Source of the DNA: Thermoanaerobaculia bacterium | Lineage (GTDB): Bacteria > Acidobacteriota > Thermoanaerobaculia > UBA5066 | Length of the DNA: 64,000 bases | Assembly (NCBI GenBank): GCA_963719225.1 | Contig: CAVRAY010000001.1 | Coordinates: 2,752,001 to 2,816,000 of the forward strand | Direction of reading: 5' to 3' | In this document: positions 26,599 to 64,000 of the stretch, piece after piece | How positions within the stretch are numbered: position 1 is the stretch's first letter | How the letters are laid out: each line of letters begins with the position of its first letter | Position numbers and translations under genes: made by a program | Notes under the pieces: model-generated | Databases searched by the model: none | What the model saw: only the letters and a program-made list of their open reading frames with translations | What the model was told of the DNA's origin: nothing

Positions 26599-26838
26599 CC
26601 TCGAATGGTAGTGCGGCCATTTCCTTTCTCACGCGTTTTGTCGAACGCTAATAGGACGTAAGAGCTGCACGTAACCCACGTCCCAATGGATCACGCTTCT
26701 CCCAAACGCCGTGGCTTTGTCATCTACCGAAGGGTTTCCCGAATCACTTGCACTCCTCGTCCGGAGGTAAACCACCGGTGTCTACATCTAGCGCCGCATC
26801 GGGTGAGCGTCGGTCACCCCGGAGCCTCATGGACACGC

Positions 26839-34559: not shown

Positions 34560-34658
34560 TGGCGGAAGCGTGTGGGGGTCGAACCCACCCGCCGCCCCTC
34601 TCGGAGCGGGCACGCTGGTTTTGAAGACCAGGAGGGCCGCCGGGCCCCTTGCGCTTCC
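34560..34658 (-). tRNA. selC: tRNA-Sec (UCA)
   Basis: Reverse complement reads GGAAGCGC...CTGGT-CTTCAAA-ACCAG...GTGGG-TTCGACC-CCCAC-ACGCTTCC-G-CCA; 6-bp D stem, long variable arm, encoded CCA; TAGAAT upstream. Confidence 0.95.
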
Positions 34659-60096: not shown

Positions 60097-60121
60097 AGGC
60101 GAGGCTTTCCTAGGCGTAAAA

Positions 60122-60158
60122 ACTTACGCTTGACTTACGTCTCAGGCGGACCTACGTT
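60122..60158 (+). promoter_or_regulatory. imuA promoter with overlapping direct-repeat operator
   Basis: ACTTACGCTTGACTTACG (60122-60139) over TTGACT-N17-TACGTT, 6 nt before the GTG. Confidence 0.75.
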
Positions 60159-60164
60159 GGCCGG

Positions 60165-61019
60165 GTGTCGGCGCTGCTTCTTTCCGCCCCGCTGCCCCTT
60201 CCTGACTTGCCTCGAGAGATCGCCGCCCGGCTGACGACCGCCTCCGGACTTTCGCGCGAACGGTTCGTACCGGGGTTCCTGCCCACACGCATCGAGGGGC
60301 TGGACCGATTGTTGGGAGGCGGGCTGCCCCGCGGCGCGCTCGTGGAGATTTCGGGGCGCGCAACCTCGGGCCGTTTTTCGGTGGCGCTCTCTGCCCTCGC
60401 CGCAACCACGCAGACGGGCGAAGTCGCCGCGCTCGTTGATCCCGGCGACCACTTCGATCCGCAGGGGGCGGCTGCCGCCGGCGCCGAGCTTTCACGGATG
60501 CTTTGGCTGCGCCCGCGTGGGCTAAAGCCGGCGCTCGCCGCGGCCGAGACCATCCTCGCGACGGGCTTCGCGCTCGTCGTCCTCGACCTCGGGCTCTCAC
60601 GCATCTCCAGGCGGCGTTTCGACGACGCCGTCTGGCTGCGCCTCGCGCGGCGCGCCCGCTTCCACGACGCGGCGCTCCTCGTCCTGGCGCCTTACCGCGT
60701 CACGGGCACCGCGGCGCACGTCGTGCTCGCGGCCGATGCGGCTCACGCGGGCTGGGACCGCGCGAGCCTGGACCGGCGGGCGCAGAGCGTGTCGCTCCTC
60801 GACGGCCTGTCCTCGCGCCTCGTGCTCGAGAAAACGCGGGACTCGAAGATGAATATGAATATGAAAGACAAGACGAGCTTGCTGAATCTCTCCCTGCTGG
60901 ATGCGGTTCAGGCAGGTAAGGAAGAGAGAAAAGAAAGAAAGATTTGCTTAGAAAGGGAAGAAAGAGAAAGAGAGAACGCCGTTTCGTTTTCCAGGCATTC
61001 ATCCGCATTCGAGCGTTGA
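60165..61019 (+). CDS. imuA: ImuA-like (RecA/RadA-fold) mutasome accessory protein
   Basis: LDRLLGGGLPRGALVEISGRATSGR (degenerate Walker A), LVDPGDHFDP, ALVVLD; upstream of imuB. Confidence 0.8.
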   Translation: MSALLLSAPLPLPDLPREIAARLTTASGLSRERFVPGFLPTRIEGLDRLLGGGLPRGALVEISGRATSGRFSVALSALAATTQTGEVAALVDPGDHFDPQGAAAAGAELSRMLWLRPRGLKPALAAAETILATGFALVVLDLGLSRISRRRFDDAVWLRLARRARFHDAALLVLAPYRVTGTAAHVVLAADAAHAGWDRASLDRRAQSVSLLDGLSSRLVLEKTRDSKMNMNMKDKTSLLNLSLLDAVQAGKEERKERKICLEREERERENAVSFSRHSSAFER

Positions 61020-61057
61020 GGGGTCTGGGAGCCAGGGATATTCACCTTCTAAGAAAA
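60943..61057. repeat. Convergent pair of the dispersed motif at the imuA 3' end
   Basis: TTTGCTTAGAAAGGGAA (60943-60959) and TTCACCTTCTAAGAAAA (61041-61057, exact reverse complement of 57113-57129). Confidence 0.82.
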
Positions 61058-61088
61058 ACTGCATGACATCAACCGAGGCACAGCAGGC

Positions 61089-62672
61089 ATGGAACGACCG
61101 GCAGATGCGCATGCGGAGCAGCAAAAAAATTCGTCCCCGGCCACTCCGGCCGCTCCCCGCCTCGCGTGTCTCGTGGTGCCGCTGTTCCCCCTCGCCGCCC
61201 GGCTGCGCAGCGAGCCCGCGCTGCGGGACGAGGCGGTCATCCTGTGCGAAGGGAACGGGACGGCCGCGCACGTGGTCGCGGCCACGCGCAAGGCGCGCAA
61301 GGTCGGCATCCGCCCGGGCTTCACGCTGCCGCAGGCGCGGGCGCTTCTGCCCGACCTCCTCACGCGCGCGCGCGACGCGGAGAGCGAGCGCGCCGCGCAG
61401 GAGGCTCTCCTCGACGTGGCCGGCACGGTGTCGCCGCGCGTGGAGGACGCGGGCGACGGTGTCGTGTACCTCGACGCGGACGGCCTCGAGCGCCTCTTTC
61501 CCGACGAGCACGACCTCGGCCGCGCCCTGATCGCCGCCGCGAAGCGCGAGTCTTTGCCCGCGCGCTGCGGGCTCGCGTCGAGCAAGCTCGCCGCGCGCGT
61601 GGCCGCGACGTTGCCGGACTCTCCCGTCGCCGTGCCCGCAGGCGGCGAAGCCGCGTTCCTCGCGCCGCTGCCTCTCGCGAAGCTGGATCCCGACGCCGAG
61701 ATCGTCGAGACGCTCGCGCGCTGGGGTCTCTCCTCGGTGGGCGACCTCGCGAAGCTGCCCGCGGCCGACGTCGCGAGCCGGCTCGGCGCGCGCGGACACG
61801 CGCTGCACGAAATCGCGCGCGGGCGCGACCCGCGCCCCCTCGTGCCGCGCCGGCCGCCGCCGGGCTTCACGGAAGGCATGGAGCTGGAGTGGCCGCTCCT
61901 CACGCTCGAGCCGTTCCTCGCGCTGGCCGAGAGCGCGCTCGAACGCCTCGCGCGGCGCCTCGAGGCGGAGGCCGTGGGCTGCGCGCGGCTGGACATCTCC
62001 CTGACGCTCGAGCCCGAAGGCTGCGACACGCGCAGCCTGGATCTGCCCGCGCCCACGCGCGACGTGAAGACGCTGCTCACCCTCGTGCGTCTCGGGCTCG
62101 AGGGCCGGCCGCCGGGCGCCGCCGTGACGGGCTTTTCCCTCACGGCGCAACCCGACGCCCCGCGCAAGAGCCAGCTCACGCTCTTCGGGCCGGCCGAGAT
62201 CTCGCCCGATCGCCTCGCGACGGCGCTCGCGAGGCTCTTCGCGCTCCTCGGGCCCGGGCGCGTGGGCGCGCCGAGCCCCGTGGACGGCTACCGACCCGAG
62301 CGCTTCGCGCTCGTGCCATTCGCGCCGCCGCCGCCTCCCGTGGTACGCAAAATGCCGAAGACGGGCCGTGGCCTTCTCTCGGTGCGCGTGCTGCGGCCGC
62401 CGGTGCCGCTCGAGGTGCTTCTCGAAGGCGAGCGGCCCACTTCGCTGCGCGCGCTCGAGCCCCGTTCCACGGAGGGCGGCGGGGGACGGCCGGTGGACGT
62501 GGCCGGCACCGTGCGCGTGGCCTCCGGGCCCTGGCGCCTCGAGGAAGGGTGGTGGCAGGAGGCGCCTGCCTTCCGCGCGTACTGGGACGTGGAGCTTTCG
62601 GGCGGCGGCCTCTACCGCATCTTCCACGACGAAGCGGGCGGCGAGTGGTTCGCAGACGGCGTGTACGACTAG
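61089..62672 (+). CDS. imuB: ImuB, catalytically inactive Y-family DNA polymerase
   Basis: RLACLVVPLFPL, GIRPGFTLPQARALLP, SPRVED...YLDADG, C-terminal GPWRLEEGWW...RAYWDVEL...WFADGVYD. Confidence 0.88.
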   Translation: MERPADAHAEQQKNSSPATPAAPRLACLVVPLFPLAARLRSEPALRDEAVILCEGNGTAAHVVAATRKARKVGIRPGFTLPQARALLPDLLTRARDAESERAAQEALLDVAGTVSPRVEDAGDGVVYLDADGLERLFPDEHDLGRALIAAAKRESLPARCGLASSKLAARVAATLPDSPVAVPAGGEAAFLAPLPLAKLDPDAEIVETLARWGLSSVGDLAKLPAADVASRLGARGHALHEIARGRDPRPLVPRRPPPGFTEGMELEWPLLTLEPFLALAESALERLARRLEAEAVGCARLDISLTLEPEGCDTRSLDLPAPTRDVKTLLTLVRLGLEGRPPGAAVTGFSLTAQPDAPRKSQLTLFGPAEISPDRLATALARLFALLGPGRVGAPSPVDGYRPERFALVPFAPPPPPVVRKMPKTGRGLLSVRVLRPPVPLEVLLEGERPTSLRALEPRSTEGGGGRPVDVAGTVRVASGPWRLEEGWWQEAPAFRAYWDVELSGGGLYRIFHDEAGGEWFADGVYD

Positions 62673-62725
62673 ATCTTCGCCGTGCTCCCCTGCAGGCGTT
62701 ATCGTCCGATCGCAACGAGGTCGAA

Positions 62726-62980
62726 ATGAAAAAGGCCAAACGCGCTCCTGTTTCCGCCGAATTCGTCTGCACGCGCGTCGGAAAGGCGTACGTCAGCTTT
62801 CACCTGATGCCGATCTACATGTCTCCCGAACTCGCGAAACAGATCTCTCCGGCGCTGAAAAGGCGCATGCAGGGCAAGGCCTGCTTCAACTTCAAGGCAC
62901 CGGATCCGGCGCTCTTCAAGGATCTCTCCGGCCTCACGAAGTCGGCCTACGAGACGTGGAAGAAGGAAGGACTCGTCTGA
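62726..62980 (+). CDS. Small hypothetical protein (DUF1801-like, possibly N-terminally truncated)
   Basis: GAGG RBS; YVSFHLMPIY...LKRRMQGKACFNFK. Confidence 0.6.
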   Translation: MKKAKRAPVSAEFVCTRVGKAYVSFHLMPIYMSPELAKQISPALKRRMQGKACFNFKAPDPALFKDLSGLTKSAYETWKKEGLV

Positions 62981-63609
62981 AAAGAAAGCTCTACGACGAG
63001 GCGTACTTCCGGAAGTGGTATCGCGATCCGAAGAAGCGCATCGTGCGTCGTGCGGGCGTCGCGCGCAAGGTCGCGATGGCCGTCTTCGTCGCGGAGCATC
63101 TCCTCGGCCGTCCGATCGATTCGGTGCTCGACGTGGGCTGCGGCGAGGGCGGCTGGTTTCCGCTGCTGCGCGCGCTGCGCCCGAGGCTGCGCTACCTGGG
63201 CCTCGATACGAGCGACTACGCCGTGCGTCGGTTCTGCCGCTCGCGCAACGTGCATCGGGGCTCCTGGGGCGAGCTCTCGGAGCTGCGCTTCGACCAGCCG
63301 TTCGATCTCGTCGTGTGCTCGGACACGCTCCACTACGTGCGGACGTCCGAGCTCGTGCGGGGCCTCGAGGTCCTGCCGGAGCTCGTGGCGGGCGTCGCGT
63401 ATCTCGACTTCCTCTCGGCCGACGACGATCTCGAAACGGGCATCGAGGGCGATCTCGTCGGCTTCAAGATGCGCCGCACCTCCTGGTATCGGCGAAAGTT
63501 CCGCGAGGCGGGTCTCGTCGAGTGCGGCCTCGGCTTCTGGGCTGCGTCGGAGCTCGCTCCCCGGCTCACCTTGCTCGAGCGCGCACCCGGACAGAAACAG
63601 GCGCCTTGA
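62977..63609 (+). CDS. Class I SAM-dependent methyltransferase
   Basis: YDEAYFRKWY, SVLDVGCGEG, FDLVVCSDTLHY; probable CTG start overlapping the upstream TGA. Confidence 0.82.
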   Translation: MKRKLYDEAYFRKWYRDPKKRIVRRAGVARKVAMAVFVAEHLLGRPIDSVLDVGCGEGGWFPLLRALRPRLRYLGLDTSDYAVRRFCRSRNVHRGSWGELSELRFDQPFDLVVCSDTLHYVRTSELVRGLEVLPELVAGVAYLDFLSADDDLETGIEGDLVGFKMRRTSWYRRKFREAGLVECGLGFWAASELAPRLTLLERAPGQKQAP

Positions 63610-63635
63610 CTTACGCTTTACTTACGCCATAGGCT
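63606..63635 (+). promoter_or_regulatory. dnaE2 promoter with overlapping direct-repeat operator
   Basis: TTGACT-N18-TAGGCT, 6 nt before the ATG; contains ACTTACGCTTTACTTACG (63609-63626). Confidence 0.75.
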
Positions 63636-63641
63636 CGCCCC

Positions 63642-64000
63642 ATGGCGGAAGGGCCCCCCAGCCGTGACTTCATCGGCCCATACATCGGATGCGGCCTGCA
63701 TTCCTCGGCGGGCGCGCGCAAGGAGAAAGCGCGCGTGCGCGCGTTCGAGCGGCCGCCCGTTCCTCCGAAGCGCGCGAGACCGTATGCCGAGCTGCGCGTC
63801 GCCTCGGCGTTCTCGTTTCTGAACGGCTCGTCGCTGCCGGAGGATCTCGTCGTGCGAGCGGCGGCGCTCGACCTCCCCGCGATGGCACTCGTGGACACGA
63901 ACGGCCTCTCCGGCGCCCCGCGCTTCTGGAAGGCGGCGAAAGCGGCGGGAGTGAAAGCGCTGGTTGGAGCGGAGGTCGTCATCGCGCCGCACCCGGCTCT
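63642..64000 (+). CDS. dnaE2: Error-prone DNA polymerase DnaE2 (ImuC), 5' part only
   Basis: Manual translation gives YAELRVASAFSFLNGSSLPEDLV...MALVDTNGLSGAPRF...ALVGAEV (PHP domain); downstream of imuAB. Confidence 0.88.
   Translation, partial: MAEGPPSRDFIGPYIGCGLHSSAGARKEKARVRAFERPPVPPKRARPYAELRVASAFSFLNGSSLPEDLVVRAAALDLPAMALVDTNGLSGAPRFWKAAKAAGVKALVGAEVVIAPHPA

Follow-up and report, generated by a model that had tools for sequence, protein, structure and literature searches.

We analysed a 64,000-nucleotide stretch of the genome of a Thermoanaerobaculia bacterium (phylum Acidobacteriota; assembly GCA_963719225.1, contig CAVRAY010000001.1, positions 2,752,001 to 2,816,000 of the forward strand), hereafter the window, which carries imuA-like, imuB-like and dnaE2 genes of a mutagenesis cassette near its end. 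An 11-base-pair (bp) direct repeat lies on the predicted promoters of both imuA and dnaE2. From comparative sequence analysis, we put at roughly 90% the probability that the one canonical LexA of the genome uses this repeat as its operator, and that the repeat has this role in most Thermoanaerobaculia. The features of the locus are listed below, with gene identities taken from Pfam and NCBIfam and operator scores from the matrix introduced further on.

60115..60119, plus strand: inverted half-site CGTAA, pairing as CGTAA-N4-TTACG (60115-60128)
60122..60139, plus strand: putative operator at imuA, with ACTTACG half-sites at 60122-60128 and 60133-60139, 11 bp apart; 21.3 bits
60130..60158, plus strand: sigma-70-type promoter of imuA-imuB predicted from sequence, with -35 box TTGACT (60130-60135), 17-bp spacer and -10 box TACGTT (60153-60158)
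60165..61019, plus strand: imuA-like gene, RecA-like, 284 amino acids (aa), GTG start at 60165; PF00154, E 8.8e-11
61089..62672, plus strand: imuB-like gene with a Y-family polymerase fold, 527 aa; PF00817, E 2.3e-20, with weak DNA polymerase IV matches
62728..63609, plus strand: two genes inserted between imuB and dnaE2, an 83-aa open reading frame (ORF) without a Pfam match and a methyltransferase
63606..63635, plus strand: promoter of dnaE2 predicted from sequence, with -35 box TTGACT (63606-63611), 18-bp spacer and -10 box TAGGCT (63630-63635)
63609..63626, plus strand: putative operator at dnaE2, with ACTTACG half-sites at 63609-63615 and 63620-63626, 11 bp apart; 23.1 bits
63642..64000, plus strand: 5' end of dnaE2, error-prone polymerase, ATG at 63642, PHP domain, extending past the window

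Both imuA and imuB score under the curated family cut-offs, the top NCBIfam match of the imuA-like protein being ImuA_translesion (E 2.2e-12, under the cut-off of that family), and the first 619 aa of dnaE2 best match NF004225, error-prone DNA polymerase (E 1e-145). The two inserted genes are unrelated to imuB and dnaE2, and the TGA stop of the methyltransferase (63607-63609) falls inside the dnaE2 -35 box. Past the window end, the dnaE2 frame ends at 1082 aa (host genome G000, contig C1:2818888-2818890), just short of the C-terminal OB-fold region; the coding sequence of this region carries on in a different frame, through either an assembly error or a real frameshift. One uvrA copy of the host genome is likewise split.

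A preliminary description of the window had pointed to the two 18-mers as 11-bp-period direct repeats that overlap a TTGACT -35 box and match at 17 of 18 positions. Both were located and differ by a single base. At imuA the -35 box overlaps the start of the second half-site; at dnaE2 it overlaps the start of the first, and the spacer contains the repeat. The exact dyad ACTTACG-N4-ACTTACG has only these two matches, in the window as had been noted and also in the whole 4.75-Mb genome, and the same two sites are the only matches of TTAC-N7-TTAC genome-wide. About 3e-6 exact dyads per window are expected from the genomic heptamer frequency, for a motif picked after it had been seen. A window search allowing three mismatches was uninformative and no better than chance, since at least two matches arose in 36 of 100 shuffles. 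The 11-bp period of the original motif held up and its two perfect heptamers did not: the core is TT[AG]CG-N6-T[TA]NCG, an 11-bp direct repeat placed on the TTGACT -35 box, and a TTACGCTTGACTTACG core is kept in 9/9 imuA loci shown at genus level. The inverted half-site of the preliminary description is present at imuA; its arrangement is not conserved, with CG[TC]AA-N4-TT[AG]CG in just 2/69 imuA upstream regions, and on this ground a palindromic reading of the site was dropped. The inverted half-site is incidental.

Sites elsewhere in the host genome were scored with a matrix trained on 93 lexA and imuA sites from other genomes, with the host, genome G004 and families f6, f8, f9 and f11 excluded. 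The top six of 52 matches of at least 13 bits in 4.75 Mb were dnaE2 (23.1), a radical-SAM gene (21.8), lexA (21.4), imuA (21.3), the radical-SAM gene again (19.1) and intI (18.7). When one mismatch to the exact dyad was allowed, three further matches appeared at two loci, namely an integron integrase (TIGR02249, over cut-off) and a radical-SAM/HhH gene (TIGR03916-like), upstream of which three in-phase half-sites lie; with three mismatches allowed, lexA appeared among 55 matches. The site at lexA lies on its predicted promoter (C1:1590112), as is expected of an autoregulated LexA operator. Half-sites across these five loci read TTACG, TTGCG or TTTCG, and the repeat covers the -35 box and spacer of the predicted promoters of lexA, imuA-imuB, dnaE2, the radical-SAM/HhH repair gene and the integron integrase. 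Some members of the genus have a part of the TIGR03916 model that is missing from the host radical-SAM/HhH gene (L319:1408-2319, 304 aa). The seventh matrix match (window position 26662, minus strand, 18.0 bits), a triple of TTACG, TTACG and TAGCG at 26645-26675, was set aside as probably due to chance, because the genes on either side of it converge and no clear target follows it. The sole Rfam match in the window is a tRNA-Sec gene at 34564-34658 on the minus strand.

These genomic counts bear on a rival explanation, in which the match reflects a duplicated promoter or a conserved sigma-factor promoter element and not an operator. The first half-site does have bases in common with TTGACT, and the imuA and intI promoters of the host are alike beyond the repeat. 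In many relatives, moreover, intI directly follows imuAB, so this pair of promoters is probably of shared origin. However, a half-site follows the -35 box in only 4 of 152 promoter-like sequences of the genome, every one of them at regulon genes, and outside the repeat the sequences around the imuA site and the dnaE2 site are dissimilar. Both half-sites are also kept at lexA, dnaE2 and the radical-SAM gene over many families while the 6-bp linker varies, and in the host's genus the lexA repeat is displaced from the -35 box. We therefore regard a mere promoter match as highly improbable.

By its nearest named homologues, the host belongs to Thermoanaerobaculia. Conservation across the class was assessed in the best-scoring loci for each gene, not in all matches, with hand-picked loci from other families added for lexA and imuA and a site threshold of at least 13 bits unless stated. 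Two of the genes lay outside the training set. For dnaE2, a site of at least 15 bits was present in 24/30 loci (the 30 best of the 137 genomes that had a match), and the maximum among 58 coding windows used as a control was 8.9 bits; of the six misses, four are probably operonic because imuB ends 364-604 bp upstream, one is truncated by a contig end and one is unexplained. For the radical-SAM gene, 21 of the 22 loci with an N-terminal match carried a site (8/30 loci were dropped for want of such a match), the single miss being a 35%-identical homologue. Outside families f6, f8, f9 and f11, sites were found at 48/53 lexA loci and 48/49 imuA loci of the class. The pattern TTGHHTTRCG-N6-TWVCG occurred in 99 of 151 class genomes, with 180 matches versus 30 for the reversed control and one to five per genome. 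The unpublished genome G004 is counted in the imuA tally, in the 151 genomes and in the recA tally given below, and its removal shifts each by one; none of the claims depends on it. These data support an SOS-type operator, as first proposed: the repeat is found at lexA and further damage-response genes class-wide, and is not a general promoter feature.

Twenty extra matches of the pattern were inspected, and most of the weak ones had no plausible target gene. Strong operator copies were seen upstream of a small HTH_3 (XRE) gene in three genomes of family f15 (L396, L399 and L400), which is a possible extra member of the regulon, and another copy lies upstream of a 167-aa ORF in L397. Numerous genomes of families f1, f2 and f11 (including G052, G140, G148, G108, G124, G040, G128, G082, G086 and G050) encode an integron integrase on the same strand as imuA-imuB(-dnaE2) and a few kilobases further downstream, an arrangement that suggests co-transcription with the mutasome. 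The host integrase is separate from imuAB and has its own operator copy.

LexA itself is encoded outside the window, which holds no lexA, as the preliminary description had stated. The genome has one lexA (C1:1590309-1590917, over the TIGR00498 cut-off) and one S24 gene, and the protein has the features of a canonical LexA, namely a winged-helix and an S24 domain, an Ala-Gly cleavage site and a Ser/Lys dyad. Residues A89, G90, S123 and K160 are invariant among 34 aligned LexA proteins. In an alignment to Escherichia coli LexA, helix-3 residue 42 corresponds to E. coli Asn41 (hence position 41 below, in E. coli numbering), a residue that contacts operator DNA according to the accessible parts of two sources (PMC5999292, PMC13416735). 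A divergent LexA or another repressor had been proposed as the binder, with LexA paralogs in mind; the likely binder is the one canonical LexA of the genome rather than a paralog.

We compared 184 distinct lexA upstream regions, taken from the class, the wider phylum and some further phyla. Among them, the 11-bp repeat keeps a constant promoter position while its sequence tracks helix residue 41. A half-site read-out anchored on the -35 box was abandoned for an unanchored one, as it missed the lexA sites of the host's genus, which are shifted from that box. T[AG]CG-type half-sites occurred in 104/108 regions whose LexA has Gly41 (9-19/108 at neighbouring spacers, which confirms the 11-bp period), TTCG-type half-sites in 42/49 regions with Ala or Ser-Thr (0-2/49 in the same control), and xxCA-type half-sites in 11/11 regions with Asn41 (0-2/11). 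Three Gly-type LexA proteins from outside the class (L181, L259 and L268) also go with TACG repeats, their tree placement being weak. It is likely that the change of half-site is tied to Gly at position 41. More tentatively, and with a probability that we place somewhat short of even, there may be a phylum-wide series of 11-bp-period boxes in which the helix residue sets the half-site (TTCG for Ala/Ser41, TACG or TGCG for Gly41, xxCA for Asn41) and LexA coats two or three in-phase half-sites head to tail. Further box variants that appear to be undescribed were seen in the Asn41 lineages of other Acidobacteriota (loci L165-L167, L170, L173, L178-L180, L183, L187 and L192), which have TTCAC/TTACAC-type 11-bp repeats at lexA; in two of these lineages, TTACAC repeats go with an SPNAA helix like that of E. 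coli. Upstream of lexA, TTCG-type 11-bp repeats are also present in records that carry the label Binatota, Gemmatimonadota or deltaproteobacteria (L243, L246, L247, L252, L255, L260, L261, L264, L266 and L274), so the direct-repeat box extends beyond Acidobacteriota.

Two families serve as natural controls. For family f11 (loci L106-L117, L146-L151, L154 and L155), a LexA query matched nothing in 16 genomes, and the LexA DNA-binding domain was over cut-off in 0 of 5 genomes checked. The -35-plus-repeat pattern was found in 0/16 of these genomes, and the repeat in 0/12 imuA promoters scored (13 were taken, one of which gave no match). Instead, TGAC-N10-GTCA is present in one or two copies in 10/12 f11 imuA regions, which are shared with a divergent HTH_3 + S24 gene. 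A strict form of this palindrome occurs in 6/16 f11 genomes and in 6 other genomes, and all 7 matches in f11 genomes fall at the imuA/HTH_3-S24 locus. By analogy with Bacteroidetes, this phage-repressor-like gene likely encodes a non-canonical SOS repressor. In family f8, the LexA helix is of the STASAQKH type and the repeat is degenerate and TTAY-type; no half-site of the kinds described above was seen in 12/16 lexA upstream regions of f8-like LexA.

The same comparisons help to weigh whether another damage-responsive factor acts at the repeat, for instance a single HTH-WYL (PafB/PafC-like) activator bound at the -35 box, with lexA as just one gene among those that it controls. The site overlaps the -35 box at a constant phase, which is also possible for activator or sigma-adaptation sites; the genome has one WYL-domain gene, and recA is not among the targets. 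Against such a factor, the half-site changes together with the recognition-helix residue of LexA throughout the phylum, the site is not found in f11, the family in which no canonical lexA was found, and the WYL gene of the host carries no site. Moreover, the repeat occupies the spacer and, in the host's genus, the sequence ahead of the -35 box as well, a placement more consistent with steric repression than with activation. We consider binding by another such factor quite improbable and retain LexA as the likely binder.

Several observations nevertheless weigh against a LexA operator. The core SOS gene recA, a usual member of LexA regulons, had a site of at least 13 bits in 0/30 loci (best 12.3). 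Of the repair genes that the preliminary description had named for scanning, lexA alone carried the site; recA, both uvrA copies, ssb and ruvA of the host, together with recN and dinB, had none (best 7.8 bits within 2.5 kb). The lexA and imuA tallies overlap the training set and omit f6, f8, f9 and f11. The intI sites (4/30 loci) come from the host's genus only, and the host intI promoter resembles that of imuA, so they are not independent evidence. The absence of the repeat in f11 represents one lineage, and f8 has lexA but scores low (lexA 1/13, imuA 2/8), with only a degenerate related repeat. The residue and half-site patterns were defined post hoc, and the tree of 180 LexA C-terminal domains is mostly unresolved (22/176 branches supported) and gives 1-3 independent pairs on supported branches, too few to test; the co-variation is for these reasons suggestive rather than demonstrated.

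Given where the repeat sits and how it is conserved, the steps of binding, repression and induction can be sketched from established LexA biology. LexA DNA-binding domains would bind half-sites spaced by one helical turn, two per promoter or, in some cases, three, and LexA lying over the -35 box and spacer would exclude RNA polymerase. Upon DNA damage, RecA filaments would trigger LexA self-cleavage at Ala89-Gly90 through Ser123 and Lys160, and this cleavage would free imuAB, dnaE2, the radical-SAM gene, intI and lexA. dnaE2 would carry its own operator because it is separated from imuAB, and recA, uvrA, ssb, ruvA, recN and dinB, having no site, would be outside the regulon.

For most of a large class that is represented chiefly by metagenome assemblies, the analysis puts forward a likely SOS operator together with its regulon, which is pared down to mutagenesis genes, one repair gene and lexA. 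Since LexA boxes differ frequently from lineage to lineage, with 17 motifs listed in the available portion of one source (PMC8565304), specialists would hardly be surprised by one more motif on its own. The findings that most merit further work are the correspondence between helix residue and half-site bases and, in one family, the replacement of LexA. Among the natural LexA/operator pairs, a single helix residue varies along with one or two bases, so that direct-repeat recognition could be tested by swaps, and the residue-41 series, if true, would be a testable code for how dimeric LexA reads direct repeats. On the same reading, Thermoanaerobaculia LexA would control a mutagenesis regulon only, without recA, and one family would have swapped LexA for a phage-type repressor.

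No description of the motif or of a Thermoanaerobaculia LexA box was found in literature that mostly did not include subscription papers and did not include supplements, CollecTF or RegPrecise. The comparisons that follow refer to the accessible parts of the papers cited. The genes themselves are familiar, as imuA-imuB-dnaE2, integron integrases and a COG4277 radical-SAM gene are known SOS targets (PMC3323433, PMC8565304). The phage-repressor-like SOS repressors of Bacteroidetes (PMC8565304) resemble the f11 HTH_3 + S24 gene with its own palindrome, whereas the host has a canonical LexA and a single S24 gene. The Bdellovibrio box TTAC-N3-GTAA (PMC8565304, PMC3323433) has the TTAC half-site in common with the present repeat but is a palindrome; in the host genome, CGTAA-N3-TTACG occurs once and TTACG-N3-CGTAA not at all, and the inverted arrangement at imuA is not conserved. 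The Balneolaeota LexA repeat TTACACATATTTTWTACATA (PMC7739468) is likewise a direct repeat beginning with TTAC, and translesion polymerases and a radical-SAM gene are at the centre of its regulon; it differs in its 13-bp period, TACA half-site and AT-rich linker, in the inclusion of recA, and in belonging to a different phylum. The host repeat, with its period of 11 and CG ending, does not fit the TTACA...WTACA pattern with a 13-bp period.

Within the phylum, the LexA box of Acidobacterium capsulatum is said to be GTTC-N7-GTTC, reportedly the subject of work by Mazon et al. in 2006. Other Acidobacteriota in our set have NTTCG-N6-NTTCG at the same promoter position, with the TT[AG]CG half-site in register with NTTCG. 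The alphaproteobacterial GTTC-N7-GTTC box, as far as the consulted text of two sources goes (PMC3323433, PMC8565304), is likewise a direct repeat of 11-bp period at lexA and imuA-imuB-dnaE2. The half-site of the present repeat is TT[AG]CG (the second often TACCG) and not GTTCG, the LexA helix is S[FY]GT..KH and not SLATVHKH, and recA and uvrA carry no site here. The Thermoanaerobaculia box is most likely a variant of GTTC-N7-GTTC that would control a small mutagenesis regulon without recA.

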